NCBI GenBank assembly: GCA_040768985.1
Contig: JAXGLX010000002.1
Span: 4,485,871 to 4,549,870, forward strand
DNA from: Acidobacteriota bacterium
Lineage (GTDB): Bacteria > Acidobacteriota > JAAYUB01
Reading direction: 5' to 3'
Length of the DNA stretch: 64,000 bases
The notes under the pieces are model-generated. The model saw only the letters and a program-made list of their open reading frames with translations. It had not been told where the DNA came from and ran no database searches. Each line of letters begins with the position of its first letter. Position 1 is the stretch's first letter. Below are positions 19,451-36,748 of this stretch, one piece after another. The position numbers and the translations under genes are program-made.

Positions 19451-19562
19451 GAGATAATCGGTGCGGGGCATCCTGTGTTCAATCTGCCGACTCCATCCGG
19501 TTGCGGAGGCTCTCGAAGCCCTCGCGCAGGGACTCCCGGCACTTCCGGCGTCTGCTAGCTTC

Positions 19563-19592
19563 TTGATTGAGTGTAGGTATTATGTGTAATAT
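19563..19592 (+). promoter_or_regulatory. Candidate promoter TTGATT-N18-TAATAT in an AT-rich patch upstream of the giant gene
   Basis: Hexamers read directly; locally low GC in an otherwise GC-rich window. Confidence 0.3.
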
Positions 19593-19664
19593 ATCCAACA
19601 TTCCCACAATCAGGCGGGACGCAGTTTGCGGGTGATGTTTTCCGGCCGGAAGGGTAGGTGAAAC

Positions 19665-22600
19665 ATGTTCAGATCGTCCCTGACACGGCACGGCAGCTTC
19701 TTCACCGGTCAAGAGCGGACGGATCGCCGGCAGCGTCCGGCCGGTCGCGTCGGACGCTGCGGGTTCGCGGTCGGGATCGTATTCATCGCCCTGGCCCGGC
19801 TGGGCGCCCAGGACCTGGAGATCGCCGGCGACCCATCGATCAACCGGTGCGAGGCCAAGGTCTACACCCTCACCCTGCAAAACGATTCCGGAAATCCGTT
19901 GACCCGCCTGGTGGCGAGTGCCGATCTCTCGCTGTTGACGGGATTTTCGTACGTGCCCGGCAGCACCTCGATTTGGGTCAACGCCGAGCCGGTGTTCTGC
20001 ACCGCCGATCCTGCGGCCGGCGGCGGCTCCTTGATCTGGGACCTGGATGCGCTTTGCGGCCCGACGGTGGGCCTGGACGATGGCGACACGCTGAGTGTCA
20101 CCTTTCAGCTTCAAACGGCGTGCGCCGCCGTCTCCGGTTCCCTGGGCAGCCGGTTTAACTATGACATTGCGGGGACGCCGTCCGAGATCTTAGCGGCCCG
20201 CGCCATCCAGGTGTTGCCGGGCCGGCTGAGCATCCGGAAAACCCCCAGCGTCATCTCCCAGGAGGTGGGTCAAAACGTCACCTGGACCATCGCCGTGGAG
20301 AACACCGGCCTGGGAACGGTCCGGAACGTGGTGGTGACCGACGGGTTGGGGGCGGGCCTCGAGTACGTGGCGTCGTCGCCGGCCGGCCTCAACGCCGGGC
20401 CGACGACCCGCTGGGATGCGGCCCAGGTGCCGGGCCTGGCGCTGATGGTTCCCGGCGACATCATCACCCTCGACGTCACGGTGAAAGTCATCGCCTGCAC
20501 CGGCCTGGACAATTCCGCCGACGCGCGGTGGGGCTGCAACCCGGCGACCGACTGTTTCGACACCGCCGTCGACGGCGGGACGGCCACCGCGGTGGTGCAG
20601 CGGATCCCCCGTTCTCCCAGCCTGAGCTTGACGCCCCCCGACATCGGTTTCTCATACTGCGAGGACAGCGGCCCGCAGGCCTTGAGTGTGGAGAATATCG
20701 GTGACGGGACGGCCCGAGCGGTCGAGCTGTGGATCGACTTCAGCCCGCTGGCCGTCGCCGCGTCGTCGGTCCCCTACAACGCCGCCGGTTACTTTGAGCT
20801 GCCCGACATCGCCGCTGGCGGCCGTGTCGACGTGACGTTCACCCTGGCGTACGCCGGCTGGTGCGGCGGAGCCGACCTGGCGGGAACGCTGATCTGGCAA
20901 CCGCGCTACGCCGACGACTGCGGCGGCGCCTATTTCGCCCCGGTGGAATACAGCGAGATCCTCCCGGCAACCGGGACGCCCGGCCTTTCGGTCGACGTCA
21001 CCGGCGCCCCCGACGTCATCTCCATCGGGGACGCGGTCACGTACGCCGTCACATCCAACTATTCGGGGACCTTGAACTGCGGCGCGGGGAGCGTCGGGGC
21101 CGTCACCGTCACCGACACGGTCCCCGCGGGCTTCACCGTCGTGGACGCCGGCGGCGGGACCTGGGTTCCCGGGGCCGGCGGCACCGGCGGCGCGGTGACC
21201 TGGGCCTATCTCCCTCCCGCCACCCTCGCCACGACGCTGACCCTCCAAGCGCCCCTCCGGGACGAGTGCGAAACCTGGTGCTTCACCACGTTCGCCAACT
21301 CCGTCGAAGCCTCCGTCACCGACTGCTGCGGCTGTGAGCACACGGCGGCGGCGTCGCAGTCTTCGGCGATCGTGTGCGAGGAACTGGTCATGGTCACCCG
21401 GACCGCCACGCCGGCCACCGCGGAGCGCTGCTCGAATATCCTGTACACCAACATGTATGCATTCGACGGCTCGGCCGGCGCCCTCCTCAACGAGTTGGTG
21501 TTCACCGAACGGGCCGACCATCAGCAGCAGTACGTCCCCGGATCGCTGACCGTCACTTTCGACGGCGGTGACGTCACCGGATGCGTGCTCGTCACCGACA
21601 CGACCCCGGGCGGGACGCTGACCCTCGACTTCTCCGGTTGCGCCGCCGCCGCGGTGGGCGCGAAAGCGCTGGTCATCACCTACCAGCTGACCATCACCGA
21701 GGCCACCGCCGCCGCCTGCGGGGGAACGGAATTCTACGCCTGGTCCGCCCTGCAGCAGGGGAGCACCGGATCCCAGTGCCTTGTGGACGGGACCATCTAC
21801 GAGGCCGTCGCCGTCGCCGTCGAGGCGCCGGCCATGTCTCTCCGGTTGTCGGGCCTGTCGACGGTCGTGGACCGGTGCCGGACGGAGACGGTGACCCTCA
21901 CCCTGGCCCAAACGTCCATGGCCGCCAATCCCCGGGACGTCCGGCTCGTGCTGTCCGGCCTGAACTATTACGTGGTCAATCCAAGCGCAGCCATTTGCGC
22001 CGGCGACGTTTCGCCCATCTCCTGCACCCCCGCCCTGGTGGGGGACGACTTCGTCTGGTATTTCGGCGACGGATTCACCGGTGCCGGGCAGAGTTGCGTC
22101 CTCCAGTTCCAGGTGCAGAAGCGCTGTTCCGGCGGGGGGAGCCTGGAGGCCACGGCCTTCTTCGACGACCGCTGCCACGACGACGGCGTTTATGACGATA
22201 CCTGCTCCGTGAGTGGCGGCCTGACCCCCGCCGCCATCCGCGGAGGCGACCTGCTGGTGGAAGTGAGTCCGGAGGTCTACCAGGCCGCCTCCTCTTCGGT
22301 GGAGTGGAAGGTTTTCGTCACCAACCGGGGCGCGGGCACCGCCGCCAACGTGTGGGTGGATCACTTCCTGGGCGCCGGGCTCGATTTCAGTTCCGCTGTC
22401 GTCGACGACATGACCGGCGTCACCGTCACCGCCGACATGGACCACACCGGGGGCGCCGTCAACGGCGCCACCGTCGCCATCGACGCCCTGGCGCCCGGCG
22501 AGCGGCGGGAAATTTCCTTCCACGCGGTCCTGATCGACACCTTTAACCTGACCCTCGACGTGGCCGCCGCCTGGGGCTGCGTCGGCGTCGACTGCCAGTC

Positions 22601-25600
22601 GGCCGTGCGGGACAGTTCCACGGTGGAGACCCTCACGCCCATGCTGGTGGACACCGCCGTCGTGACCACTCCCGTGGATGCCTGCGGCGGCTCCACGGGC
22701 ACGCTCACGCTCCGCAACGCCGGACAGACCGCCTGCTACAACGGCCAGGTCACGGAGACGTTGCCGGCCGGCCTGCGGTACGTCTCCGGCACGACCCGCT
22801 GGCGGGTGAACGGCGGAGCATGGAACGGGCCCGACGCCGCCTACGACCCCAATCCCACCGTCTCTCCCCTGCGCTGGACCGCCACCGGGATCCCGGGATT
22901 GGCGGTTCTGAACCCGGGGGACACCCTGGATGTGGACTACGACTTGTCCGCGGACTGTCCCTTCACCGGCGGGCCGGTCACGGTCACCGTGTCGTACGAG
23001 GACCCCGGCGGGCAGGTCATCAACAATCCGGCGTCCACCTTCTCCGTGGCGTTCCGGGCGCCCGACCTCCGGGTGACGAAAACCCGGGCCGACCAACCGG
23101 TAAGCTGCGGGGAACTCATCGAGTGGACCATCGCGGTGGAGAACCAGAGCGGCTACACGCTTCCCATCGTCTGGGTCGAGGACACCCTGGATGCCGCCTT
23201 TACCTTCAACTCCTCGGTGGGAGACCCGCCCTACACGGCCGACGACGGCACCTTTGACGGCGTGAATCGGGTCAGCTGGGAACTGAGCTATCTTGGTCCC
23301 GGAGAAACCGCGATTCTGACCTTGCGGGCCTCATTGGATTCATCACCCTGCAGCCCGGACCTGGACAACACGGTCCGGGCCTGGTGGGGTTGCGGAACCG
23401 CCGACGGCTCGTCTGCAACCCAGCCAGGCGTGGATCCTCCCGATAACGGCCTTTGTCTGAACCCGACGCCGGTGAGCTACGTACGCACCGAGACCCGGCA
23501 GCCGAGCTTGACCGATTTCGCCGTCGGCCTCTCCCCCGCATCCATCGATGCCTGCAACGGCGGCACCGAAGTGACCTTCGCGTGCGCCAACACCGGCACC
23601 ACGGATGCTTTCCTCCTCGATGTCGAGATCTCCCTGCCCGCCGGGCTGACGTACAATCCCGGGACCGCCCGACTGTATGTCGGAGCCGACGGCACGGGCG
23701 CCACCACACCCATCGCCGATCCCGCCGTTTCGGGGAATCGGCTGATCTTTTTCGACACGGCCGACAAGGTCAACAACCTGGTCGATGTGCTGCAGGCCGC
23801 CGGTGGCAGCGACACGCTGGTGCTGAAATTCGAATTGCGATCGGATTGCTTTTTCGCGGCCGACCTGGGATACGCCGTGCGCTTCTACGACTGCTGCGGC
23901 GACACCCAGTACCAGCTCAGCGGCAGCCAGACAGTGCCGGCGCTCAACCCCGAGCTGACCGTCACCCAGGCGCCGGCATCCGCGCAGATCGCCTGCGGGG
24001 GACAGCAGGCCTGGACCATCACCGTCACCAACACGGGGGCGGGTAACGCCCAGGTGGTCCGAATCGAGGACACGCCCGGCGCCTGGATTACCGTGGACCC
24101 GGGCGCCTCCACCGCCGGGCTGACGGACCTGGGCTCCGGAAAGTGGGGCTGGGAGATCAACGATCTCGCCTCCGGCGGCGCGCAGGTCTTCACCCTGGCG
24201 GGAACCCTGAACCCGGCCGGGAACGGCTGCGATGCGTCCCGGCGCGAAAACAACGTCCGGGCTGTCTGGGGGTGTGGCACCGCCGGCGATGCCACCGACG
24301 GCGATCCCCTCACCCAAAGTTACGACTGCACCTCGGCGGTCTGGGCGACCGCCCCGACCGCCATTCTCCGGCTGCCCAACCTGGCCGTTGGCGCCGTCGC
24401 GCCTGCGGCCGCCTGCGCCGCCGACGGATCCTTCACCGGCAGCATCGCCGTCTCGATCGTCAACGCCGGCGACGGGAGCACCGGCGGCGGCTTCCTGATC
24501 CAGGCCGCCGACGGGCAGGGCTGGACCGGCACCTTCGCTTGCGCCAACATCCTCGCCGCCGGAGAAACTCTGAACCTCGACATCCCGGGCTCCTCCTGGT
24601 CGCCGGCGTGGGTGCCCGCCTGCACCCCCTGCGCCGCGGCCTCGCCCTACAGCTTCACCGTCGTGCTCGACCCGACGGGCGCCGTCTGCGAGTGCGACGA
24701 GAGCGACAATGCCCTGGCCGGGATCCTCTTCGACGTGCACCGCCCCGAACTGGCGGTGACGGACATCGATTTTGCGCTCGTCGCCTGTTCCGGCGACCAG
24801 GTCGCCGGCGCCATCCGCGTCCGCGTGGACAACACCGGGTGCGCAGACGCGGCCGGGGTCGTGGTTCGACTGACAGCCGACTGCGGGCTCACCTTCGGCG
24901 ACCAGATCACCAATGTGCCGGCGGGATCCCACACCCTGGCCGAGTTCCCGATCGTTGACGGTGCTTGGAACGACTGCGCCGACGAAACCTGCGCCTTCAC
25001 GGTCGCGGTGGATCCGGCGGGGCTGATCTGCGAGTGCGTGAGCGGCGGCGACACCCTCGGACCCGTGACCCACACGCTGTCCCTCCCGGACCTTGAGGTG
25101 ACCGACATCGAGCTGGGCGCCCTGAGTTGCGACAGCGGCGTCGTGTCCGGTTCGGCGTCCGTCACCGTCCGCAACGCGGGGAGCGGCGCGGCGGGCGCCT
25201 TCAGCGTCAGCCTGTCCACCCCGGCCGGCCTGGCGTTCACCGACCAGCCCGTCGCCGCGCTGGCTGCGGGCGAGAGCATCACCCTCGTATTCCCCGCTGC
25301 GGGGAGCCTGCCCGACTGCTGCCTCTGCGCGGCCGATTTCACCGCCGCGGCCGACGCCGCCCAGGCTGTCTGCGAGTGCCGGGGGGACAACAACGTCCGC
25401 ACCGTCCGGCCCGCGGCTGCGGACAAGATCTACTGGACGGACGAGAGTGCCGGCGCCATCCAGCGCGCCGAGGCCGACGGCGCCTCCGTGGAAGCGGTGC
25501 TCGCCGGGCTGGCCGGACCCCGCGCCGTGACCCTCGACGGGACCGGCGGCAAGATGTACTGGCTCGAGCCGGCCGGCGGCGTTCTCCGCCGGTCGAACCT

Positions 25601-28600
25601 GGACGGCACCGATCCCGAAACCCTGCTGGACAGCCTGTCGGCGCCGGTGGCCCTGGCTCTCGATCCGGCCGCCGGTCTGCTCTACTGGACCGACGCCGCG
25701 GGGGTGCACCGGGCTGGCCTCGACGGCGCCGATCCGGAGAATCTCATCCCCTCCGTGACGGATGCCGCCGGCATCGCCGTCGACTCCATCACCGGACGGC
25801 TCTATTTCGCCCAACCCGACGGCCGGATCCGCGGGGCGAACCTTGACGGCAACGACCTTCAGGAGGTGATCGCGGGCCTGGGCAGTCCCTTCGGCCTGGC
25901 GCTGGACATCCGGAACGGCATGCTCATATTCTCCGATCCGCTGACCGGCCTGATCCAGCGGATCTATCCGGACGGCACCGGCCTGACAACCGTGCTCGGC
26001 GGCCTGGAGTCCGCGGTGGGGTGCCTGGCCCTGAACGCGGAGGCCGAAACGGTCTACTACGAGACCCGGGGCGCCGCCATCCGCCGGGTGGGCCTGGACG
26101 GCGCGGGGGACGCGGCGATCGTCGACGGCCTGGACCAGTCGGGCGGTGTGGCCGTCCTGAAACTCAACACGGCGCCTACGGCCACGGAGATGAACCAGAC
26201 CCGCGACTATCTCCAGGGCGCCGCGACCGTGCCGCTCAACGATATCGTCGTGACCGATCCGGACTTCTGCGATACGGTCATGGCCGTCCTGATCCTGGCC
26301 GACCCGTCGTTGGGCGGTCTGTCCGACAGCAGCGGGCACGGCGAAACCTACGACGCCGCGGCGGGCCGGTGGACGGTCACCGGATCCGTGGCGGACGTCA
26401 ACGCCGCCCTGGCCGACGTCGCCTTCCTTCCGGTCCCCGACAATCCCGATGCCGAAACCGTCACCGTCCGGATCCGGGACGCTTCGGGGGCAGGCCCCGC
26501 CGATGGCGCCGTGGTCCTGGGCGTGATTCCCTATCCGGTCATTTCCGGGAGCGTCCGGCTCAACGGCGCCGGTGTCGCCGGCGTGGCGATGAACGGCCTG
26601 CCGGGCGGCATCGCCACTGACGCCTCCGGCGGCTACAGCGCCGTGTTGCCCCACGACTGGTCCGGGACAGTCACCCCGGACCTCGCCGGTTACCATTTCA
26701 CTCCCTCCAGCCGGACCTACGCCAACGTCGCCGTGGACCAGCCGGACCAGGACTATACCGCCACGGCCGCCACCGCCGCCGTCCTGGTTTCGGAACCGAA
26801 TCCATCGGTCTTCGGCGATCCGGTGACCCTGACGGTGACGGTCTCTTCCGCCGCCGGCCCGCCGCCCGGCACGGTGCGTTTTCTCGACGGCGCCGTCGAG
26901 ATCGGATCGGGGACACTGTCGGCCGGAGCCGCCGCTTTCTCCACCAGTCTGCTCTCCGGCGGGCTCCACGTCCTCACCGCCGCATACGACGGCAGTCCCG
27001 GCTACGAGACATCGGTTTCACCGCCCGTGAACCACCCGGTCAACCCGGCCGCCACGGCGACGAACCTCTCGTCGGCGCCCAATCCCTCGGTCTTCGGCGA
27101 CGCCGTGACCCTGACGGCCGTGGTCAGCTCCGGAGCGGGCACGCCGTCCGGGACAGTCACCTTCTTCGAGGGAGCCACGGTTCTCGGGAGCCAGGCGCTG
27201 GCGGGCGGTGTCGCCACTGTGGTTATTCCGTCGCCCCCTGGCGGCATTCACGGCTACAGCGCCGCCTATTCCGGCAACGCCGACCACCAGCCGTCCGCTT
27301 CGGCCGTCCTGAACCACTTGGTTCAACCCGCCCCCACCGCCACAACCCTGTCGTCGGCGCCCAATCCCTCGGTCTTCGGCGTCGCCGTGACCCTGACGGC
27401 GGTGGTGGTCTCTCCCGTCCCGGCGCCCGCCGGGAGTGTGGCCTTCCGCGACGGCGTCGTGGTGCTGGGAACGGTCGTCCTCTCCGGCGGCGGGACCGCG
27501 GTGTTCACCACGTCCGCGCTCACCGGGGGGACGCATTCGTTGACGGCCGAGTATCTCGGGACCGCGAACCACGCGGCCTCCACCTCCCCGGCCGTCCTGC
27601 AAACGGTTCGCCGGGCCGCGACCGCCACGACGGTCTCGTCGTCCGTCAACCCGTCCCGGTACGGACAGCCGGTGACGTTCACCGCCGCGGTGGCCGGCCC
27701 CGGGAGTCCGCCCACCGGCACCGTCGTTTTCCGGGCGGACGGCGCCGATCTCGGTCCGGCGGTGCCCCTGTCGGGCGGCATGGCCGTCCTGACCACTTCC
27801 GACCTGGCGGTGGGCGGCCACACGATCACCGCGCACTACCGGCCCATGGCCGACCCGAATCACCTGCCCAGCGAGGAGTCGCTGACCGGCGGGCAGAACG
27901 TCGTCAAGGCAGACACGACGACCGCCCTGACGACCAGCCGATCGTCGAGATATGGAGAAGCGGTCAACCTCACGGCCGTCGTGGCGGTGATCCCGCCCGG
28001 GAGCGGAATGCCCTCGGGAACGGTGACGTTTTTTGACGGAGTGACTACCCTGGGAACAGGTACACTGTCGGGCGGAACGGCGACCTTCACCACGACGGCC
28101 CTGGCGGTGGGGCCGCACCAGCTGGCGGCCCGGTTCGAGGGGAACGCCTCGCTGAATCCCAGCGTATCGCCGTCCACATTCCACCGGGTGTATATGGCCC
28201 TAACCGGCACGGTGCTGGCGGCCGCGCCGAATCCCTCGCACCGGGGCCAGACTGTGACGTTCACGGCGACGGTGACGGCGACACCTCCGGGAGCGGGAAC
28301 GCCCACCGGGACGGTGACGTTCCGGGACGACGGGGTCGCTCTCGGCAGTGCGCCGCTGTCGAACGGTACGGCGACGTGGGCTACCGCGCAGTTGACGATG
28401 GGCACGCATCCTATCACCGCGGGATATTCCGGTGACGAGAATTTTCGGTCGAGCGATTCGGAGATCCTGTCCCAGGCCGTGGAACGGGCGGAGACGGCCA
28501 CCACGCTCCATGTGTCACCGAGCCCCGTCTGTCCGGGCGGGACGGTGACCTTGACGGCCATGGTGTCCGTCGTGCCCGCTGGTGAAGGGACACCGACGGG

Positions 28601-30341
28601 GAGTGTCGAATTCCGGGACGGCCCGGAGCTGCTGGGAACGGTGGCGCTGGACGGCAATCTCGCGGTGTCGATCACCCTCGCTGCCCCGGAAGCGGGGACC
28701 CTGATCGTTTCCGCCGCTTACTCGGGTGACGGGGAGTTCATGGGAAGCAGTTCCGATCCGCTGGACCTGGAGGTGGCGGAGCCGCCGGCGGTGACCCTGG
28801 ATCCGATCCCGACCACGGTCGGATCGTGGGCGAGCGCCGCGCTCACGGTGGAATACTCGGGGACGGAACCCGTCTCGATCCAGTGGTACGAGGGAGCCAG
28901 CGGCGACACATCCCTGCCGGTGCCGGGAGCGACCGAGGCCACCCTCGCCACTCCGGCGGTGGACTGGGATACCGGCTACTGGGCCCGGTTGCAAAACGAC
29001 TGCGGCCAGACGGACAGCGCGGCGGCGGCCGTGACGATCCGGAACACCTATTACCTGGCGCACGTGGCCATGGACGACTTGTGGTGGACGTCACTGACGG
29101 CGGTCAACTGGAGCGAACACGATCACCCGGTGGTCTTGGAGGCGTTTGGCGCGGACGGCACTTTGCTGGAAACGCGCACGCTGGATCAACTGGGTTCCCG
29201 GTGCCAGTTGGCGCAGGACGCGTCGGAGTTGTTCTCCGCGGAAACGCTGGCGCAGGACGTCTGGGTGAGAACCACCACCGCTTCGGACCTGAAGGGCCTC
29301 GTGGCGTTCGGGACCACCGACGGGGAAACCCAGGCCAACCTGCCGTTCCTGAAGGCGGCGTCCTTCCACTCGGCCTTCCCCTACGTGGTAACGGGGGTGG
29401 CCGGCTGGTACACCGGACTGACCTTGGTGAACACCGACGAGACGCCGGCTTCGGTCCGGCTGACCGCTCGGGATGAAGACGGCGGCATCCTGTCGGAGCA
29501 GGCAGTCGCCATCCCGGGCTATGGGAAGTACGTCCGGTTTCTTGAGGAGATTTTCCCGGACGTCGCCGATCCGACGCGGCTCCGAAACGTCCGGGTGCTT
29601 TCGGACCGGCGCCTGGTGGGATTCGAACTCTTCTGGAACCTCGACCTGGCGGGCCTCGCCGGATTGCCCGCTGTGTCCATGGACGAATTGCCGCCGGACG
29701 GCGGCACATACGATCACTTCTTCAACGAGATCCCGGATTCGGGTAGTTACTATACCGGCATCACCTTCGTGAATCTGGATCAGGCGCCGGCTGCCATCGC
29801 CGCCGCCGCCTTCGATGCGGCCGGATCGCAGTTGGGGACGGAATATCTTGAACTGCCTCCCGGCAGCCAGTTGACCCGGGAGCTGCAGGCCGTGTTTCCG
29901 CCCCCGGACTATGCCGCGGCCGCGTACATCCGCTGGGACGCCCCGCAGCGCGTGACGGGTTTCGAGCTGGTGCTGACCCGGGATGGAGAATTCCTGTTCG
30001 ACGGCCTGGTGGGAGGGCTGGAACCCTGGCACCGGCTGGTGTTCCCGGCGGCCTCGCCCTCGGGCGGTTCAGTGCGGCTGCGGCTGACGAACCAGGAGAA
30101 CCTCCACCTGAATCTGGAGATCACGGCATACGACGCGGCGGGGGTGGCGCTGGCCACCCGCCCGGCAGACCTCGACGCGTACCAGTTGCTGGACCTGAAC
30201 CTGGGAGCCGACCTGGCGCCGGTGGCGGCGGAGATCGCCTGGGTGGAAGTGGAAGGCGACGGCCTGATGGTGGGCGACGCGTTCATCATCTCGGCCGACG
30301 GAAAGCGCCTGGTCATCTATGCCGGCTTTCCGGCGTGGTGA
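19665..30341 (+). CDS. Giant (3558 aa) secreted/cell-surface multi-domain protein: DUF11-like repeats, CARDB-like domains, YWTD-type six-bladed beta-propeller, seven Ig-like repeats, C-terminal repeated beta-sandwich-like modules
   Basis: Single uninterrupted track ORF; signal-peptide-like N-terminus; YWTD-like blades (KIYWTD, KMYWLE, LLYWTD, RLYFAQ, MLIFSD, TVYYET); repeated PNPSVFG...VTLTA Ig-like units; CECxxxDN motifs ending CARDB-like units. Confidence 0.85.
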   Translation: MFRSSLTRHGSFFTGQERTDRRQRPAGRVGRCGFAVGIVFIALARLGAQDLEIAGDPSINRCEAKVYTLTLQNDSGNPLTRLVASADLSLLTGFSYVPGSTSIWVNAEPVFCTADPAAGGGSLIWDLDALCGPTVGLDDGDTLSVTFQLQTACAAVSGSLGSRFNYDIAGTPSEILAARAIQVLPGRLSIRKTPSVISQEVGQNVTWTIAVENTGLGTVRNVVVTDGLGAGLEYVASSPAGLNAGPTTRWDAAQVPGLALMVPGDIITLDVTVKVIACTGLDNSADARWGCNPATDCFDTAVDGGTATAVVQRIPRSPSLSLTPPDIGFSYCEDSGPQALSVENIGDGTARAVELWIDFSPLAVAASSVPYNAAGYFELPDIAAGGRVDVTFTLAYAGWCGGADLAGTLIWQPRYADDCGGAYFAPVEYSEILPATGTPGLSVDVTGAPDVISIGDAVTYAVTSNYSGTLNCGAGSVGAVTVTDTVPAGFTVVDAGGGTWVPGAGGTGGAVTWAYLPPATLATTLTLQAPLRDECETWCFTTFANSVEASVTDCCGCEHTAAASQSSAIVCEELVMVTRTATPATAERCSNILYTNMYAFDGSAGALLNELVFTERADHQQQYVPGSLTVTFDGGDVTGCVLVTDTTPGGTLTLDFSGCAAAAVGAKALVITYQLTITEATAAACGGTEFYAWSALQQGSTGSQCLVDGTIYEAVAVAVEAPAMSLRLSGLSTVVDRCRTETVTLTLAQTSMAANPRDVRLVLSGLNYYVVNPSAAICAGDVSPISCTPALVGDDFVWYFGDGFTGAGQSCVLQFQVQKRCSGGGSLEATAFFDDRCHDDGVYDDTCSVSGGLTPAAIRGGDLLVEVSPEVYQAASSSVEWKVFVTNRGAGTAANVWVDHFLGAGLDFSSAVVDDMTGVTVTADMDHTGGAVNGATVAIDALAPGERREISFHAVLIDTFNLTLDVAAAWGCVGVDCQSAVRDSSTVETLTPMLVDTAVVTTPVDACGGSTGTLTLRNAGQTACYNGQVTETLPAGLRYVSGTTRWRVNGGAWNGPDAAYDPNPTVSPLRWTATGIPGLAVLNPGDTLDVDYDLSADCPFTGGPVTVTVSYEDPGGQVINNPASTFSVAFRAPDLRVTKTRADQPVSCGELIEWTIAVENQSGYTLPIVWVEDTLDAAFTFNSSVGDPPYTADDGTFDGVNRVSWELSYLGPGETAILTLRASLDSSPCSPDLDNTVRAWWGCGTADGSSATQPGVDPPDNGLCLNPTPVSYVRTETRQPSLTDFAVGLSPASIDACNGGTEVTFACANTGTTDAFLLDVEISLPAGLTYNPGTARLYVGADGTGATTPIADPAVSGNRLIFFDTADKVNNLVDVLQAAGGSDTLVLKFELRSDCFFAADLGYAVRFYDCCGDTQYQLSGSQTVPALNPELTVTQAPASAQIACGGQQAWTITVTNTGAGNAQVVRIEDTPGAWITVDPGASTAGLTDLGSGKWGWEINDLASGGAQVFTLAGTLNPAGNGCDASRRENNVRAVWGCGTAGDATDGDPLTQSYDCTSAVWATAPTAILRLPNLAVGAVAPAAACAADGSFTGSIAVSIVNAGDGSTGGGFLIQAADGQGWTGTFACANILAAGETLNLDIPGSSWSPAWVPACTPCAAASPYSFTVVLDPTGAVCECDESDNALAGILFDVHRPELAVTDIDFALVACSGDQVAGAIRVRVDNTGCADAAGVVVRLTADCGLTFGDQITNVPAGSHTLAEFPIVDGAWNDCADETCAFTVAVDPAGLICECVSGGDTLGPVTHTLSLPDLEVTDIELGALSCDSGVVSGSASVTVRNAGSGAAGAFSVSLSTPAGLAFTDQPVAALAAGESITLVFPAAGSLPDCCLCAADFTAAADAAQAVCECRGDNNVRTVRPAAADKIYWTDESAGAIQRAEADGASVEAVLAGLAGPRAVTLDGTGGKMYWLEPAGGVLRRSNLDGTDPETLLDSLSAPVALALDPAAGLLYWTDAAGVHRAGLDGADPENLIPSVTDAAGIAVDSITGRLYFAQPDGRIRGANLDGNDLQEVIAGLGSPFGLALDIRNGMLIFSDPLTGLIQRIYPDGTGLTTVLGGLESAVGCLALNAEAETVYYETRGAAIRRVGLDGAGDAAIVDGLDQSGGVAVLKLNTAPTATEMNQTRDYLQGAATVPLNDIVVTDPDFCDTVMAVLILADPSLGGLSDSSGHGETYDAAAGRWTVTGSVADVNAALADVAFLPVPDNPDAETVTVRIRDASGAGPADGAVVLGVIPYPVISGSVRLNGAGVAGVAMNGLPGGIATDASGGYSAVLPHDWSGTVTPDLAGYHFTPSSRTYANVAVDQPDQDYTATAATAAVLVSEPNPSVFGDPVTLTVTVSSAAGPPPGTVRFLDGAVEIGSGTLSAGAAAFSTSLLSGGLHVLTAAYDGSPGYETSVSPPVNHPVNPAATATNLSSAPNPSVFGDAVTLTAVVSSGAGTPSGTVTFFEGATVLGSQALAGGVATVVIPSPPGGIHGYSAAYSGNADHQPSASAVLNHLVQPAPTATTLSSAPNPSVFGVAVTLTAVVVSPVPAPAGSVAFRDGVVVLGTVVLSGGGTAVFTTSALTGGTHSLTAEYLGTANHAASTSPAVLQTVRRAATATTVSSSVNPSRYGQPVTFTAAVAGPGSPPTGTVVFRADGADLGPAVPLSGGMAVLTTSDLAVGGHTITAHYRPMADPNHLPSEESLTGGQNVVKADTTTALTTSRSSRYGEAVNLTAVVAVIPPGSGMPSGTVTFFDGVTTLGTGTLSGGTATFTTTALAVGPHQLAARFEGNASLNPSVSPSTFHRVYMALTGTVLAAAPNPSHRGQTVTFTATVTATPPGAGTPTGTVTFRDDGVALGSAPLSNGTATWATAQLTMGTHPITAGYSGDENFRSSDSEILSQAVERAETATTLHVSPSPVCPGGTVTLTAMVSVVPAGEGTPTGSVEFRDGPELLGTVALDGNLAVSITLAAPEAGTLIVSAAYSGDGEFMGSSSDPLDLEVAEPPAVTLDPIPTTVGSWASAALTVEYSGTEPVSIQWYEGASGDTSLPVPGATEATLATPAVDWDTGYWARLQNDCGQTDSAAAAVTIRNTYYLAHVAMDDLWWTSLTAVNWSEHDHPVVLEAFGADGTLLETRTLDQLGSRCQLAQDASELFSAETLAQDVWVRTTTASDLKGLVAFGTTDGETQANLPFLKAASFHSAFPYVVTGVAGWYTGLTLVNTDETPASVRLTARDEDGGILSEQAVAIPGYGKYVRFLEEIFPDVADPTRLRNVRVLSDRRLVGFELFWNLDLAGLAGLPAVSMDELPPDGGTYDHFFNEIPDSGSYYTGITFVNLDQAPAAIAAAAFDAAGSQLGTEYLELPPGSQLTRELQAVFPPPDYAAAAYIRWDAPQRVTGFELVLTRDGEFLFDGLVGGLEPWHRLVFPAASPSGGSVRLRLTNQENLHLNLEITAYDAAGVALATRPADLDAYQLLDLNLGADLAPVAAEIAWVEVEGDGLMVGDAFIISADGKRLVIYAGFPAW

Positions 30342-30414
30342 GTCTGGAGGAGTGGAATATCCTGAACCGTCGGGGCGTCCGGCCTGGTTGGGGCGGGAAC
30401 AGCCCACCCGGAAT

Positions 30415-30520
30415 GCTGCCCCCGCTGGCGTGCGATTTCACTGATGACGAGTCGCTGGACGCGGCGGACCTGCTGATCCTGGACGCCTACTTCGCCGGCC
30501 GCCGGACCGCGCTTCACTGA
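30415..30520 (+). pseudogene. Dockerin-like C-terminal module fragment, out of frame (+2) with the giant ORF
   Basis: Track ORF 30335-30520 tail ...LPPLACDFTDDESLDAADLLILDAYFAGRRTALH matches the C-terminus of the 17748-19109 product. Confidence 0.5.
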
Positions 30521-30700
30521 CCGGGCCGGTGTCGGGATCACCGGCCGGGCCGCGGACCGGCGGGCTCCGGTGATTCACGCGCCGCTTACTTCACCACCAC
30601 CTTGAGCAGCGTGCCGGCCGGCAGGGCGGCGTCGAGCTGGACGCCGTTGAGGATCGCCGCCGCCTCAAGCTTGTCCGCGGCCACGCCCAACCGCTGGAAC
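30423..30700. repeat. Right copy of the ~275-bp diverged direct repeat
   Basis: Aligned by eye to 19011-19285. Confidence 0.8.
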
Positions 30701-32067
30701 GCCTGGCGGGCGGTGCCGGCCGCGGCGGTTTTCCGGAGCGTCAGCTTGTTCGGCTTGGCGTTGAGCTTCGCCGGATCCGTCAGGTTGTTGAAGCCGGCCA
30801 TGGTTTGCTTGAACACGGAAAAGTAGCGGTCGAACAGCGACGGGTCGGTGTAGCTGTGGAACACGTAGACGTACTTGTCCTTCTGAATGAAGGACGACGC
30901 GACGCGGATGTTTCCCTGCTCCAGCGCGACGTCGGAGACCAACTGCTGTGCGAGCAAGCCGTTGATCCGCGCGGCTTGTGATTGAAGGATGGACGCCTGG
31001 CTCTCCTGCCGGAACGCCTCCGCGGCCGCCGCCGGCGAGGCGCCGGGGGCCATGGAGAACAGGATCACCGCGTCCTGCTGCGCGGCGTAGAGCTGCACCT
31101 GGGCCGCGGTGTTGTTCACCTTCCAGCCCGAGGGCACCGGGAACTGGAACGCGAGCTGGGGATGATAGAAAGTCTGCCCCTCGACGTAGCCCTGGCGGGG
31201 GTCTTCGCCGAAGACGAGCCCCTCGAGGCGGCTGAGGTACCCGTCGCGGTTGGTGACGAACGCCGCGCCTGCCAGCTTTTCCTGCCAGACCTGGGCGTCG
31301 CGCCGGATGGCCGCGATCCGGTCCGGAGGGTTGGGGTGGGTGGAGAACCAGCCGGGCAGGCCGCTGCGGTCGGAGCCCGGGTTGAGCCGCTCCAGCGTGA
31401 CGAACATGTTGGCCATGTGGTTGGCGTCAAACCCGGCCCGGGAGGCATACTCGACGCCCAGGGCGTCCGCCTGGCGCTCGTCGTCGCGGCTGAACTTCAG
31501 GAAGAGCATGCTCAGCCCCAGTTGGGCGATGCCGGCGTACTTCTGGAACGTCTCGGAGAACATGCTGCCCACGCCCAGCCCCAGCATGGCCAGTTGCGCC
31601 TGGCTGTACTGGCGCACGCTGTGGCGCGCCGCGATGTGGCCGATCTCGTGCGACATGACGCCGGCCAGCTCCGCCTCGTCGTTGAGGTAGGAGAGCATCC
31701 CCCGGGTCAGATACACGTACCCGCCGGGGACCGCGAAGGCGTTCACCACGTCGCTGTCCACCACCTGGAGGGTGTAGGTCAGGTCCGGCCGGTGGCTCAG
31801 CGCGCCCAGCTTGTGGCCCAGCGCGGCCACGTAGGCGTCGAGTTCCGGGTTGTTGTACTTGCCGTACGTCTGCAGGATCTCGGGATCGAGCTGCTTGCCC
31901 AGGGCGATCTCGTCGGCGGTGGAGACGAGCATCAGCTCCCGTTTGCCCGTGACCGGATTCTTCGCGCAGGACATGCTCCAGATCACCAGGGTGGCCGCCA
32001 CGACCACGGCAGCGGTCCGCCAAACGATGGAACGACGCATCGCGCACCTCCTGATAGTGGGAACCAA
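30586..32067 (-). CDS. M48-family zinc metalloprotease with C-terminal extension
   Basis: Track ORF 493 aa; HEIGH zinc-binding motif; N-terminal signal/lipobox-like region; alternative start at MRRSIV (32040). Confidence 0.85.
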   Translation of the reverse strand: MVPTIRRCAMRRSIVWRTAAVVVAATLVIWSMSCAKNPVTGKRELMLVSTADEIALGKQLDPEILQTYGKYNNPELDAYVAALGHKLGALSHRPDLTYTLQVVDSDVVNAFAVPGGYVYLTRGMLSYLNDEAELAGVMSHEIGHIAARHSVRQYSQAQLAMLGLGVGSMFSETFQKYAGIAQLGLSMLFLKFSRDDERQADALGVEYASRAGFDANHMANMFVTLERLNPGSDRSGLPGWFSTHPNPPDRIAAIRRDAQVWQEKLAGAAFVTNRDGYLSRLEGLVFGEDPRQGYVEGQTFYHPQLAFQFPVPSGWKVNNTAAQVQLYAAQQDAVILFSMAPGASPAAAAEAFRQESQASILQSQAARINGLLAQQLVSDVALEQGNIRVASSFIQKDKYVYVFHSYTDPSLFDRYFSVFKQTMAGFNNLTDPAKLNAKPNKLTLRKTAAAGTARQAFQRLGVAADKLEAAAILNGVQLDAALPAGTLLKVVVK

Positions 32068-32190
32068 CCGATGATCCTATTATAGTACTTTTGTGGCGTG
32101 CTCACCCGAAATCAGGGGTTCCGGTTCCTGTCGAACGGGGGTGGCGATGACGGTCGTGACGCCGGTGGCCCGTCATCAGGTGGCGGTTTC

Positions 32191-33108
32191 TTAAGGGCCG
32201 AGCACCAGGCCCAGACGGGCGGCGTCGTATGCCGGCGTCGCGCCGGAACGCGATGCCACGTAGGCAGCCAGCCGGCAGGCGTCGGCCAGGACCGCCGGCC
32301 AGGGGGGCGTCGCCCGGGCGGTCAGGGCGGCGGCGAGCACGGCGGTAAAGGCGTCGCCGGCTCCCACCGTGTCACGGACGGTCACCGGCTCGGGCCGGCA
32401 GCGGTGCCAGCGTCCGTGATCCAGGAGGATCGCGCCGTCGGCGCCCAGGGTGACGCAGATCCGACGGCATCCGGTGCGCCGTTGCAGCGCCGCGACGGCC
32501 GCTTCCAGGGGGGTGCCGGCAGCGGCGCCCGACAGCACCAATAGCTCCTGCCGGTTGAGCTTGAGCAGGTCCGCCCGGCGGGCGAGCCGCAGGGCCCGGG
32601 CCCGGTCATCATGGGGGGGGCGCAGGTTGATGTCGCAGATGCGGATGGCCGCGGTTGCTTTCAGTAGCCGGGCCAGCGTTCGCCGGTTCGGGGCCTGGCG
32701 GAGGGCCAGGCTGCCAAAGACGACGGCGTGCGGATTCTCAGCGGCGATCGCCGCTGCACCGCTGGGGTTGGGAATCCGATCCCAGGCGGCGGGTTCGGCG
32801 ATGGTGAAGCGGGGGTTGCCGTCCGCATCCAGCGAGACGCGCACTGTGCCGGTGGGCAGGTCCCGCCGGATCGCCACGGCCCGCGTGTCCACGCCGAGGC
32901 GGTTCAGGGTGGCCAGCGCTTCGGCGCCCGGGCCGTCGTCGCCCACCGCCGACACCGGCAAGGCCCGGCGGCCTAGACGGCGCAGGTGTACGGCCACGTT
33001 CAGGGGTGCCCCGCCCATGAACCGGCCGGTGGGCAGGTGGTCCCAGAGGATCTCGCCGAAGCAGAGGATCGGTCCCGTCGGCGGACGCTCGCCCGCGGCC
33101 CGGTTCAT
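32191..33108 (-). CDS. PfkB-family carbohydrate kinase (fructokinase-like)
   Basis: In-frame part of track ORF 32191-33795 from MNRAAG; GAGDAF-type PfkB motif (DTVGAGDAFTA); ATGA overlap with the upstream gene stop. Confidence 0.8.
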   Translation of the reverse strand: MNRAAGERPPTGPILCFGEILWDHLPTGRFMGGAPLNVAVHLRRLGRRALPVSAVGDDGPGAEALATLNRLGVDTRAVAIRRDLPTGTVRVSLDADGNPRFTIAEPAAWDRIPNPSGAAAIAAENPHAVVFGSLALRQAPNRRTLARLLKATAAIRICDINLRPPHDDRARALRLARRADLLKLNRQELLVLSGAAAGTPLEAAVAALQRRTGCRRICVTLGADGAILLDHGRWHRCRPEPVTVRDTVGAGDAFTAVLAAALTARATPPWPAVLADACRLAAYVASRSGATPAYDAARLGLVLGP

Positions 33109-35174
33109 GATCCGGCCACCTGGAGTTCGTGGCAGGTCCGGATGAACTCCGCTGCCGACCAGGCCTGGTAACGTTTGCCCATGGGCCGTCCCGTCACTCC
33201 GTGGGCCCATTCGTTGAATTCCCACTCCCCGGCGATGCCGGTCCGGTTGAGCTCGGCCAGTCGGACCAGCTCCTGGCGAGCGAGTTCGGGGAGGCCGATC
33301 CGGTGGATGAACCGGACCCACTGGGCGCCGATGAACGGCCACACGCCGCCGTTGTGATAGTGGTGGGGCAGATTCATCAGGTTGACGGTGTAATACCGGC
33401 GCCAGTCCGGGTCGCCGCCCGTCACCACCGGGTAGAGGTTGGCCACCGGGAAGGGCTGGTTGACGCCCACTCCCCACATGAAGCGGAACGCCTGCCGCGC
33501 CTTCTCCAGATCCAGCACCCCGTACAGGAAGGCCATCACGTTGCCCAGGACGTCGCACCGCCAGCTGTAATCGAACGGAGTGACCTGGGCGATCAGGTAG
33601 CGGGCATCGCCCAGCGCGAACTGCTGGTCGGCGAAACTGGGCCCCTCGCCGGGAGCGGGCTGGCTGGTGCTGGGCCAGAAGTGAAGCAGGATTTCCTTCT
33701 TGATCACCTGGGACCAGCGCAAGTAGTCGCCGGCCCGGGCATCTTCCCCCAGCAGCTCCAGCATCCGGCCGAAACAGATGTTGGCGCGGTACCACAGGAT
33801 CTCATCATAGAGCACGTTGTAGCTCCGGCCGAACAGGTCGGTCCAGTCACCGGCTTCGGGGATTTCAAGAAGGGCGTCGTTGTTGCCGTCGTGGGCGCTG
33901 AGCCAGTCCATGGCCCGCTGCAGGCGGCCGGCGTGCCGGCGCAGGAACTCCAGGTCATGGGTCGCCTTGGTGTACTCGTAGCAGGCGATGACAAGCCACA
34001 GGCCGCTGTCGATGGAGCAGATGCTGCCGATCCCCGAGTAATCGGGCCGGCCTGAATCGATGGCCACGTTGGTGGGGATCTGCCCGTTGGGCGACAGGTT
34101 GCCCAGCAGGGTCTCCAGGGTGGCGAGCTGGCACCGACGGATGGACTCGTCGCCGGCGAGCGGCAGCGATCCGCACACGGCGATGGAACCATCCCGGGCC
34201 CAGACGCTCCGGTAATTGATGTCGGTGCCCGAGGGATCGTTGTCGGGCAGCGAGCACGCCGAAAAGCCAACCGAGGTCACGTTCCTGCGCAACGCCTCCA
34301 CCGCCCGCCCGTAGGCCAATCGGATGAAGGCCTCCTCGTTGCTGACCGGTCGTTCTGTCCGGCCGTGATCGGGCAGAAAGGGAACCTGGCCCGCGTCGGT
34401 CTCGGTCTCCGGTAGTTTCGCACCGGCGGGGAACACCTGGTAATGGCTCAATCCCTCCACCACGCCCCGGGCGCAGGGCGCCGCCGCGTGGTAAAAGGGC
34501 CGGTGCTTGGTGGCCTGGTACAGTTCCGGCTGGGCGTTGCCCACCACGATCCCCTTGACCTGATCGATGAGGAACATGGCCAGGTCGTTGCCGCTGTCAC
34601 CGGCCACCAGGACATGATCGGCTCGGATCTTCAAGTGGCGGATCAGCCAGCGCAGGGCATTGCCCTTGTTCGCCCAACGGGGCAGAATGTCCAGGTGGAG
34701 GGAACTGGAATACACCACCACCACGTCCAGCCCGGCTTTGGTCAGCCGCTTTTCGACCAGGGCCAGTTGCTGGGGCTCGGCGTTTTCCAAAAACCAGCTG
34801 GATTTGAACCGGTTCTGAAAATGGTTGGGCTGGCGGGTGATGGGCAGGTCCACCTGGCGGATGATCCCGTCCACCCGGGCCAGGTTCCATCCCTCTTCCA
34901 GGATTTCTGAAAACTCCTTGATGAGGCGGCCCTGGCGGCGGTCGAAGATGCCCGTGCCGACGCCGGCGATGATGAAATCGGCCTCCGGCAGCCCCTCCTG
35001 CCGACAGACGGCTGCGGTGTCATCCAAAAGCCGGCCCGTGTTGTAGCAGAGCAGGGGCCGCCGGCCGGAATCGAGCGCCTCCCATTGCATGCGGAAGAAA
35101 TGGGTGGCGGGCGGATCACCCAACAGGGTGCCGTCCAGATCGGACGCAAACAGCTTGATCGTGGCGGTGCGCAT
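33105..35174 (-). CDS. Fusion protein: N-terminal HAD-type sucrose-phosphate-phosphatase-like domain, C-terminal (alpha/alpha)6-barrel glycoside hydrolase-like domain (GH100 neutral-invertase-like)
   Basis: Track ORF 689 aa; HAD motifs DLDGTL and GDSGND; C-terminal glycosidase-like blocks. Confidence 0.7.
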   Translation of the reverse strand: MRTATIKLFASDLDGTLLGDPPATHFFRMQWEALDSGRRPLLCYNTGRLLDDTAAVCRQEGLPEADFIIAGVGTGIFDRRQGRLIKEFSEILEEGWNLARVDGIIRQVDLPITRQPNHFQNRFKSSWFLENAEPQQLALVEKRLTKAGLDVVVVYSSSLHLDILPRWANKGNALRWLIRHLKIRADHVLVAGDSGNDLAMFLIDQVKGIVVGNAQPELYQATKHRPFYHAAAPCARGVVEGLSHYQVFPAGAKLPETETDAGQVPFLPDHGRTERPVSNEEAFIRLAYGRAVEALRRNVTSVGFSACSLPDNDPSGTDINYRSVWARDGSIAVCGSLPLAGDESIRRCQLATLETLLGNLSPNGQIPTNVAIDSGRPDYSGIGSICSIDSGLWLVIACYEYTKATHDLEFLRRHAGRLQRAMDWLSAHDGNNDALLEIPEAGDWTDLFGRSYNVLYDEILWYRANICFGRMLELLGEDARAGDYLRWSQVIKKEILLHFWPSTSQPAPGEGPSFADQQFALGDARYLIAQVTPFDYSWRCDVLGNVMAFLYGVLDLEKARQAFRFMWGVGVNQPFPVANLYPVVTGGDPDWRRYYTVNLMNLPHHYHNGGVWPFIGAQWVRFIHRIGLPELARQELVRLAELNRTGIAGEWEFNEWAHGVTGRPMGKRYQAWSAAEFIRTCHELQVAGS

Positions 35175-35183
35175 GGAACGGCC

Positions 35184-36506
35184 CTAGCCTTCGTGGACTA
35201 TTATGGCGGGCGATTCGCGATCCTCCACGGTGCGGATCAGTTGCTGGGCGATCCCGGTCCAGGTGAAGTAGCTGCGCACTCGGTGGGCACCCTCCTGGGC
35301 CAGCCGCCCGGCCAGGTGGCGGTAGCGCAGCGTCTTGACCATGGTGATGCCGAGGTCCTCCGGGTCGAACGGATCGGCGCAGAGCGCGTGGACGCCGTAG
35401 GACATGGTCCGGATCAGGCCGCCGTGCACCGTGATGACAGTGGGGGTGCCGCACGCCATGGCCTCGATGGCGGTCATGCCGAAGGGTTCGTATCGGCTGG
35501 GCAGCACGAACACGTCAGCCGCACGGTAGAAATCGGCCATCTCCTCGTCGGGCAGGGAGCCACGGAACCGGATCCGGTCCGCCAGGCCGGAGCGGTCGGC
35601 CTGTTCCCTGAGTTCCGCAAGCAGCGGGTCGCCTTCCAGGTTCGGCGACTCAGTTCCCACGGCCAGCACCAGGATGGCATCGGGTACGCGCGGGGCGACC
35701 ACCCGGAAGGCGTCCAGCAGCAGGTCGAATCCCTTGTTGCGGGCCAGCCGCCCCACGGAGGCGATGACCCGGTGACCGGTGTAGCCGAGCTGGTCGCGCA
35801 ACAGGTCACGGGACGAGTCGCTGAGCGGGAAAAAGCGATTGTCGTCGTAGCCGGGCGGGATCACCTGGATCTTGTCTGCTGCTGTGCCGTAATCCTTACG
35901 GATGATGTCCAACTGGGGCGGCGAGGTGGCCACCACCAGGTCGCAGTCCTTGAAAATCCGGCTTTCGCTCGCGATGCGCTGCCGGAAATTGTAGGTGGCC
36001 TCGAATGCCGCCTCCTCCTCGGGATGGTCCTGCTGCATCTGCTGTTTCTTCCAGGAGCCAAGGGAATGGGGGGTGAACAGGTGCATGGCCCCCACGGCGT
36101 CGGCGATGTACTGGCCGGCCAGGCCGGCGTCCCAGTAGTGGCTGTTGATGAACTGGTAGTTCAGCCGGTCCCGGGAAATCCAGCGCAGGGCCCGTTCGGC
36201 CCACTCCGGGATGTGCTCGTGCAGGTACTCCTTGGGGATGAAGTTCGGCCCGCCGCACGGGACGCGCAGGATGCGCACGCCCGGTCCGGCGGATTCCTCG
36301 GCGGGCTGCTCCTCGAAGCGGCGGGTCCAGATGTCCACCTGGTAGCTGAGCTGAGCCAGCTTGCGGGACAGTTCCAGCACATACACCACCTGCCCGCCGG
36401 TGTCGGGAGCGCCGAGGGGCGGCTCGGCTGACACGTAGCCATGGGTGGAAATCATGGCGATGCGCCGCTTGACGCGGGGCCGCCGACGTTGCGGGAGGGG
36501 ATTCAT
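35184..36506 (-). CDS. Sucrose-phosphate synthase-like GT4 glycosyltransferase
   Basis: Track ORF 440 aa; N-terminal SPS-type block MISTHGY...DTGGQVVYVLEL; GT4 C-terminal blocks. Confidence 0.8.
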   Translation of the reverse strand: MNPLPQRRRPRVKRRIAMISTHGYVSAEPPLGAPDTGGQVVYVLELSRKLAQLSYQVDIWTRRFEEQPAEESAGPGVRILRVPCGGPNFIPKEYLHEHIPEWAERALRWISRDRLNYQFINSHYWDAGLAGQYIADAVGAMHLFTPHSLGSWKKQQMQQDHPEEEAAFEATYNFRQRIASESRIFKDCDLVVATSPPQLDIIRKDYGTAADKIQVIPPGYDDNRFFPLSDSSRDLLRDQLGYTGHRVIASVGRLARNKGFDLLLDAFRVVAPRVPDAILVLAVGTESPNLEGDPLLAELREQADRSGLADRIRFRGSLPDEEMADFYRAADVFVLPSRYEPFGMTAIEAMACGTPTVITVHGGLIRTMSYGVHALCADPFDPEDLGITMVKTLRYRHLAGRLAQEGAHRVRSYFTWTGIAQQLIRTVEDRESPAIIVHEG

Positions 36507-36748
36507 GATCGGTTCTCCAAAAAATGGTTTTCTACGACGTCCAAACCGCTCCTGGCGGAGGCCACGCGATGCACAGAATTGAGGAACTTGTCGTGCCGGC
36601 GACGACGGCTGGCGTGTGGTGGATCGAGAGCAGACCGCGACGGGTTTCGCATGAGCCAGAGCGTGATTTTCCGGACACCTCAGGTCGCAGTGAACTCATT
36701 GTAGCATCTGGAGTTGAAATCATCAACCCCAAAACGGGCGGCCGCGCG

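Follow-up and report, generated by a model that had tools for sequence, protein, structure and literature searches.

The dockerin-like stretch that lies out of frame beyond the stop codon of a giant surface-protein gene in an Acidobacteriota genome is very probably a non-functional scar of a segmental duplication, which copied the last 34 codons, the stop codon and the spacer of a neighbouring dockerin gene. The locus was analysed in a window of 64,000 nucleotides, the whole stretch of DNA considered here, and its features are collected in Table 1. That it holds ordinary debris of genome rearrangement, and not a lost or frameshifted tail of the giant protein, is well supported.

Table 1. Features of the region between the dockerin gene and the M48 metallopeptidase gene (positions are those of the window)
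Feature	Position	Strand	Description
Dockerin gene	17748-19109 (start also given as 17745)	+	Intact; 453-aa secreted protein with C-terminal type I dockerin
Repeat copy A	19007-19291	.	Live dockerin tail 19007-19109, 65-nt spacer 19110-19174, dead M48 tail 19175-19291
M48 peptidase pseudogene	19175-19442	-	Three collinear pieces, directly left of the giant gene
Left end of inserted segment	19443-19664	+	Upstream of the giant gene, locally AT-rich
Giant surface-protein gene	19665-30341	+	3558 aa, stop TGA 30339-30341; Pfam matches
Flagged ORF	30335-30520	+	61 codons, -1 frame relative to the giant gene; translation
Right end of inserted segment	30342-30417	.	76 nt from giant stop to repeat; unrelated to the dockerin gene
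Repeat copy B	30418-30702	.	Dead dockerin tail 30418-30520 (last 34 codons of the flagged ORF), 65-nt spacer 30521-30585, live M48 tail 30586-30702
M48 metallopeptidase gene	30586-32040	-	Intact, 484 aa, convergent with the giant gene; Pfam Peptidase_M48 E = 2.8e-38

A preliminary description of this region had reported a dockerin-like ORF in another frame past the giant stop, and this ORF is real: it starts at a GTG (30335 or 30338), stops at the TGA at 30518-30520 and has the product VVSLEEWNILNRRGVRPGWGGNSPPGMLPPLACDFTDDESLDAADLLILDAYFAGRRTALH. Its C-terminus (...LPPLACDFTDDESLDAADLLILDAYFAGRRTALH) matches the end of the protein encoded by 17748-19109, as had been claimed (E = 2.5e-13 for its last 43 residues against the C-terminus of the dockerin protein in a tblastn search within the window, where no other match fell below E ~0.05). 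The tail had also been placed immediately after the stop codon, which is not where it lies; similarity to the dockerin gene begins sharply 77 nt downstream, at 30418. The match is a repeat of DNA and not a protein module. In blastn, 19007-19288 aligns without a gap with 30418-30699 over 282 nt, of which 91.8% are identical (the alignment can be extended to 285 nt at ~92%), and the repeat ignores gene boundaries altogether: it runs through the dockerin stop codon and the spacer and covers 113 nt of the convergent M48 gene. The duplication remnant offered as one alternative in the preliminary description is thereby upheld; the implication of its title, that a tail module belongs to the giant gene, finds no support. 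Over its first 31 nt (CCGGGCCGGTGTCGGGATCACCGGCCGGGCC) the spacer does not differ between copies A and B, and this motif occurs exactly twice in the window against 0 occurrences expected by chance. The source of the copied tail is the 17748-19109 gene, whose product carries a Dockerin_1 match of 26.8 bits (curated cut-off 22.9) at residues 389-445. The two copies also share a hairpin, a GC-rich inverted repeat whose folding energy is within 1-1.4 sd of shuffled sequences; a consensus terminator scan of it finds no intrinsic terminator, because no T-run follows the hairpin.

The other border of the giant gene carries the reciprocal fragment. A tblastn search of the M48 protein against 19100-19700 gave three pieces, aa 447-485 (19175-19291), aa 282-299 (19283-19336) and aa 125-157 (19344-19442), with E values of 1e-19, 3e-7 and 4e-5, respectively. 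This copy is dead: its HEIGH motif is destroyed, it has an internal stop, and it has suffered two large deletions, one of which (450 nt) falls between two copies of GCGTTCCAG. Since the M48 pseudogene and the dockerin scar lie on opposite sides of the giant gene, the two scars are reciprocal, each being a fragment of the gene that is intact at the opposite border.

The stretch had been called a dockerin segment, a name that holds for its second repeat and for nothing more. It does derive from the second calcium-binding loop-helix repeat of the neighbour's genuine type I dockerin (PF00404), but it is only half a module; the first of the two tandem repeats is absent, and the ORF alone matches no Pfam family at E <= 0.1 and falls short of the PF00404 gathering score. 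No decayed first repeat was found in 30342-30417, where Smith-Waterman scores are at shuffle level (scores at least as high as the observed one in 903 of 1000 DNA and 548 of 1000 protein shuffles), or in the last residues of the giant protein, which belong to its own C-terminal domain family. The loop, whose conserved residues have a well-known role in dockerins, has gone from DFTGDGS to DFTDDES and no longer fits the pattern D-x-[DN/T]-x-D-G. The fragment is also joined in frame to no carrier protein. The ORF overlaps the giant stop by accident: its frame is open by chance in GC-rich sequence, and the -1 frame runs uninterrupted for another 161 codons upstream of that stop, as is expected at 67% GC.

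Three relatives have the single-copy arrangement. In an activated-sludge metagenome contig (L036, ~94% identical) the site is empty: a 65-nt spacer containing the same motif separates the M48 gene from the dockerin gene, the repeat is present once, and the giant gene is missing from the locus. Two sister MAGs (L018 and L019), whose M48 orthologues are 93-94% identical, also lack the giant gene there and have one copy of each tail. The last 34 residues of the dockerin orthologues in all three are identical, and the protein encoded by the live dockerin tail is the same across the four lineages, with 0 replacements among the four live tails. With these relatives as outgroups, copy B has the derived state at nine of the ten differences between the two dockerin tails and copy A at one. 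Seven of the nine (codons of the alignments read by eye) are replacements, R>P, G>D, G>E, E>A, G>D, S>R and P>H, and both of the loop glycine changes are among those derived in the flagged ORF's copy relative to L018, L019 and L036. Constraint is relaxed on the redundant copy only (7 replacements in 34 codons). One derived base is common to copies A and B and absent from L018, L019 and L036, which places the duplication after the lineages split. The slot between the M48 and dockerin genes holds different cargo in each of the four lineages; in L018 and L019 it is occupied by a different gene (a 408-aa membrane protein or a 990-aa ORF), unrelated to the window apart from a trivial antisense overlap with the dockerin tail.

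It could be argued that the giant gene and the duplication were in place before L036 branched off, and that L036 lost both. A pair of 282-nt direct repeats is able to drive just such a loss, and recombination between the copies would restore precisely the L036 arrangement, so the empty site could be secondary; insertion in the lineage of the window therefore rests on parsimony and the one shared derived base. The outer pieces of the M48 pseudogene look older than the core of the repeat (83% and 76% identity versus 92% for the 282-nt core), and this uneven divergence, which is not predicted by a single recent duplication followed by uniform neutral decay, is a counter-point to the explanation preferred here. 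On the other hand, the derived base common to both copies is missing from all three relatives, and L018 and L019 have a different gene in the slot with no trace of a duplication. We consider an older duplication unlikely; under it the interpretation of the stretch as a scar is unchanged and the direction of change is reversed.

The repeat, the reciprocal pseudogene, the empty site of a relative, the polarity of the mutations and the native stop of the giant gene are all observed directly; for the order of events we infer the following. An ancestor had the dockerin and M48 genes tail to tail with the 65-nt spacer between them. A block across both gene ends, which began at dockerin codon 421, took in the spacer and reached M48 codon 125 or further (at least 1.25 kb), was then duplicated. 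A segment of ~11 kb with the giant gene came to sit between the copies, each of which kept the half that was needed: the left copy its dockerin tail, the right copy its M48 gene. The other halves decayed, the left M48 fragment being shortened by deletions and the right dockerin tail gaining replacement mutations. Two candidate routes could lead to this state. Either the block was first duplicated in tandem and the segment later inserted into the dispensable joint, or a circle with a copy of the block integrated in one step through a single crossover (Campbell-type).

The locus shares several features with the gene-fragment pseudogenes found at duplication borders: two direct repeats cross gene boundaries, one functional half is kept per copy, and the halves that are no longer needed gather replacement mutations and lose sequence through deletions at microhomology. 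It differs in that ~11 kb with one giant gene keeps the copies apart, which calls for a second event or another mechanism. Campbell-type integration would give the same topology, homologous segment, insert and homologous segment, with the left copy complete on the left side and the right copy on the right side. The insert here has no integrase, plasmid or phage gene and no att-like site, however, and the likeness is a resemblance only; neither a circular form nor a donor was found, and 19665-30341 of the insert is taken up by the giant ORF, whose Pfam matches are all surface-repeat domains. The ends of the insert showed no terminal repeats or other mobile-element signs apart from a 12-nt chance match. 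The left end gave no consensus sigma-70 promoter, and a counterpart of it was not found by homology in the fetched parts of L018, L019 and L036. The GC content of the insert (65-72%) is the same as that of its flanks with no shift in composition, so nothing marks the segment as foreign, and a source for it was sought and not found. There is a slim chance that the 282-nt repeats act as a recombination cassette, the giant gene entering by single crossover of a circle and leaving by recombination between the repeats. The different cargo in the slot of each of the four lineages fits such a hot spot. If this is true, these Acidobacteriota populations would be polymorphic for the 3558-aa protein, which would be gained and lost reversibly and without an integrase.

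The flagged ORF might instead be a genuine small gene for a half-dockerin peptide of 60 aa, its translation being coupled to that of the giant gene by a GTGA overlap. In several assemblies gene callers do predict a small ORF, whose GTG start at 30338 lies in a 4-nt overlap with the giant stop. The callers disagree on the start, however (60 aa or 35 aa), the small ORF is absent from all relatives compared and is without a Pfam match, and open frames of such length are common at 67% GC. With seven of the nine derived changes being replacements, the pattern looks neutral. A functional small gene is very unlikely.

The preliminary description had also considered that the giant protein once ended in its own dockerin, which a frameshift then cut off. 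In favour of this highly improbable history are the position of the dockerin-like tail, beyond the end of the giant gene and on its strand, and the -1 frame, which stays open through the giant stop. Such a history does not account for the sharp edge of the similarity well past the stop, with nothing dockerin-like before it, or for the presence of just one of the two dockerin repeats, and the copied DNA includes the donor gene's stop codon, its spacer and part of another gene. Relatives, moreover, have no giant gene at the locus, and homologues of the C-terminal domain end where the giant protein ends. The giant protein consists of DUF11/CLIPPER, CARDB and Big_3_5 repeats and a C-terminal domain of 430 aa, and its ...EGDGLMVGDAFIISADGKRLVIY stretch is homologous to the family of that domain and not to dockerins. 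Close orthologues of the giant gene did not appear in two attempts at a word-indexed search, each of which returned only two distant 530-aa proteins, and an exact look-up of the window's giant protein gave no match; because these orthologue searches gave no close match, the ends of C-terminal-domain homologues were taken from a profile-free scan of representatives. Among the 34 homologues whose match reaches the end of the query, 31 stop 0-7 residues past it, and none has a dockerin-sized extension; the in-frame tail that had been suggested as something to look for in orthologues does not occur among these homologues. In one homologue (P0001) the alignment reaches ...YAGFP at its own last residue. 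The stop codon of the giant gene is thus seen directly to be at its native position, and the giant protein should not be called dockerin-bearing or frameshifted.

The remaining proposals, a sequencing indel or a recoding event, are contradicted too. A sequencing or assembly indel near 30335-30345 that falsely splits one gene has nothing in its favour beyond the one-base frame offset and is exceedingly improbable, given eight independent assemblies from different samples with no indel in the region; seven assemblies of JGI, ENA and NCBI samples reproduce 30200-30720 without a gap and with no more than 1 mismatch (30667 A/G), a sediment contig (L038, covering 30079-31564 and hence part of 30200-30720) likewise aligns without gaps, and gene calls give the giant protein 3558 aa wherever an assembly contains the complete gene. 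Programmed -1 ribosomal frameshifting, adding the peptide to a fraction of the giant protein, would agree with the -1 offset and with the 161 codons of open -1 frame before the stop, but it has almost no credibility: the last 380 nt contain no X XXY YYZ heptamer (the sole one is GGGTTTC at 29957), the frameshifted protein would contain only half of a dockerin, its loop glycines mutated, and the two-frame arrangement is not conserved, the relatives being without the giant gene at the locus. A stimulatory structure would sit in 30342-30504, and the folds of 30505-30590, which begin ~165 nt past the stop, do not exceed shuffles in stability (z = -1.05 to -1.25).

The importance of these findings is mainly for annotation. 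In public assemblies the 35- or 60-aa gene that follows the giant gene, and likewise the small ORFs predicted on the minus strand at 19175-19390, should be annotated as pseudogene fragments. The locus is also a clean, datable case of a very large surface-protein gene placed between two housekeeping-type genes, with the pre-insertion state kept in a relative, and it could serve studies of gene turnover in uncultured Acidobacteriota.

The short ORF at the end of the giant surface protein gene is a real dockerin-like feature and is a duplication scar; it is no tail of the giant protein, whether lost, frameshifted or recoded. Its translation is VVSLEEWNILNRRGVRPGWGGNSPPGMLPPLACDFTDDESLDAADLLILDAYFAGRRTALH, the end of which matches the C-terminus (...ARPLACDFTGDGSLDAEDLLILGAYFAGSRTALP) of the protein encoded at 17745–19109 (tblastn within the window, E = 2.5e-13; no other credible match was found there). 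That protein contains a Dockerin_1 domain above the curated Pfam cut-off, so the preliminary description of a dockerin-like ORF one base out of frame at this site is confirmed. The flagged ORF itself has no Pfam match and its stretch has the second dockerin repeat but not the first; gene callers treat it inconsistently, as 60 or 35 amino acids, in a window of 67% GC.

Features of the locus (window coordinates) and of the corresponding slot in two relatives (their own coordinates)
Feature	Position	Strand or frame	Remarks
Dockerin gene	17748–19109	+	
Giant ORF	19665–30341	+	3558 aa; stop TGA 30339–30341
Flagged ORF	GTG 30335 or 30338 to TGA 30518–30520	−1 frame relative to giant ORF	
M48 metallopeptidase gene, intact	30586–32040	−	convergent gene on right-hand side; Pfam E = 2.8e-38
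Repeat copy A	19007–19291		live dockerin tail
Repeat copy B	30418–30702		dead dockerin tail, live M48 tail
Repeat element 1			last 34 codons and stop codon of dockerin gene
Repeat element 2			65-nt spacer; first 31 nt identical between copies
Repeat element 3		−	last 38 codons of convergent gene
M48 fragment, aa 447–485	19175–19291	−	95% identical
M48 fragment, aa 282–299	19283–19336	−	83% identical
M48 fragment, aa 125–157	19344–19442	−	55% identical; HEIGH motif destroyed, internal stop
L018 slot	2474–3700		408-aa multi-pass membrane protein; end overlaps dockerin gene end by 34 nt
L019 slot	11519–14491 and about 14760–15991		408-aa-type membrane protein and 990-aa ORF

The similarity is a DNA-level repeat that is indifferent to gene boundaries. 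Nucleotides 19007–19288 and 30418–30699 align over 282 nt with 91.8% identity and no gaps (blastn, MAFFT); with extension, the aligned length reaches 285 nt. The 31-nt start of the spacer is absent from the window outside the two copies. The left edge of copy B is sharp, and the 76 nt between the giant gene stop and this edge resemble the dockerin gene no more than shuffled sequence does, as DNA or as protein. Three Logan contigs with the dockerin gene (L008–L010) each terminate within the shared 31-nt hairpin, at window position 19135, so assemblers break at the repeat. The window has more direct repeats (8358–8650/9706–9810 and 42378–42457/42710–42789; 80–167 nt, 84–92% identity).

A reciprocal scar lies to the left of the giant gene, where the M48 protein matches three collinear pieces in tblastn. 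A 450-nt, in-frame deletion in this pseudogene falls between two 9-nt GCGTTCCAG copies of the parent gene (M48 amino acids 297–299 and 447–449, joined at window 19283–19291) and is a microhomology deletion. The locus therefore reads dockerin gene (rightward), spacer, M48 pseudogene (leftward), giant gene (rightward), dockerin-tail pseudogene, spacer and M48 gene (leftward), and the original duplicated block extended for some 1.25 kb or more, between dockerin codon 421 and M48 codon 125 or beyond. In public assemblies, the minus strand of the M48 remnant at 19175–19390 is annotated with an ORF of 34 or 72 aa (L001 11428–11532 and L003 6553–6769); these, like the flagged ORF, are probably mis-called pseudogene fragments. 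With 83% and 76% identity to the live gene, the outer pieces of the M48 pseudogene have clearly diverged further than the 282-nt core. Possible causes are gene conversion within the core, a donor that was itself diverged and error-prone repair close to the deletions.

Searched with the M48 protein, species-representative genomes gave orthologues of 93–94% identity in two Acidobacteriota MAGs, L018 and L019, both of which lack the giant gene between the M48 gene and the dockerin-gene orthologue and have one copy of each tail. A third relative, the 317-kb activated-sludge contig L036, is about 94% identical to the window and was found by searching metagenome contigs for the 31-nt spacer motif. 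There the M48 gene (186–1670) and the dockerin gene (1736–3115, opposite strand) are direct neighbours, separated by just a 65-nt spacer that contains this motif, with a single repeat copy, no giant gene and nothing in the slot; this appears to be exactly the pre-duplication state expected from the repeat structure. The slot cargo differs among L018, L019, L036 (none) and the window (the giant gene), and this position resembles a gene-turnover hot spot. A second lineage-specific block adjoins the M48 gene at 32055–36774 and has three minus-strand genes (a PfkB kinase, an S6PP/GH100 fusion and a GT4 sucrose-phosphate-synthase-like protein); it is missing in all three relatives, in which homology skips from about 32054 to about 36655–36775.

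With these three relatives as outgroups, nine of the ten differences between the dockerin tails of copies A and B are derived in copy B. Seven of the nine alter the residue (R>P, G>D, G>E, E>A, G>D, S>R and P>H, codons read from the alignments), and two of these replacements hit glycines of the calcium-loop motif. The live tail has the same protein sequence in the window species as in L018, L019 and L036. By this pattern the copy-B tail appears to be a fragment freed from selection. A derived T at repeat position 97 is common to both copies and absent in all three relatives, so the duplication postdates the split of the lineages. Divergence among the lineages at fourfold-degenerate sites is 0.11–0.12, and the nine derived changes in 103 nt are compatible with neutral decay since about the time of that split.

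The direct repeats, the two reciprocal dead halves, the relative with a single-copy site and the relaxation of constraint in the redundant halves only are direct observations; beyond them we infer the mechanism. Tandem duplication of a roughly 1.3-kb block across both convergent gene ends would leave both genes intact and create a dispensable joint, into which the giant-gene segment (19443–30417) would later have been inserted. Alternatively, a circular molecule carrying a copy of the block beside the giant gene may have integrated by a single crossover; either route would give the observed topology. Neither an integrase gene nor any other mobile-element gene lies in the insert, which also shows no terminal repeats and no compositional shift, and a search for its donor found none.

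Of the explanations first offered for the ORF, the duplication remnant stands, and the lost or frameshifted tail and the indel or recoding event do not. The giant protein's last 430 residues (29052–30338) match no Pfam model but belong to a large family: phmmer, run in full against 1.84 billion representative proteins, gave 1749 relatives of this domain at E ≤ 0.001. Among the 34 listed matches that reach the query end, 31 end 0–7 residues past the match, one ends 20 residues past it and two have unrelated extensions of >270 residues; none has a dockerin-sized extension. The last residues of P0001, a 530-aa distant homologue, (...LVSYLGLP) align with those of the giant protein (...LVIYAGFP; BLASTP). 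The domain therefore has its native end at the TGA at 30339. In its family it almost always forms the very last module of a large multi-domain protein, or else makes up a protein of about 500 aa by itself, and it is internally repeated (matches fall in 2–3 stretches).

For recoding, the −1 frame, where it is open, has a single X XXY YYZ heptamer, 380 nt upstream of the stop; the fold at 30505–30590, which begins about 165 nt beyond the stop, does not exceed shuffled sequence in stability, and the hypothetical product would gain only half a dockerin, its loop residues mutated. As for an indel, exact look-up of the dockerin and M48 proteins (JGI, ENA, NCBI GCA_036769055.1, Logan) found contigs of which seven span 30200–30720, gapless and with no more than one mismatch (30667 A/G), and seven span 18900–19700 with 100% identity; there is also an eighth assembly, a sediment-metagenome contig (99.3% identity in L037, 99.9% in L038, the latter covering from window 30079), that is gapless over the giant gene stop and copy B. 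Since the giant gene is also called at 3558 aa in every assembly holding all of it, a sequencing indel is ruled out as far as assemblies allow.

As a product of genome rearrangement the scar is ordinary; it is of use for correcting annotation and as a tidy example of gene insertion, with the ancestral state kept in a relative.
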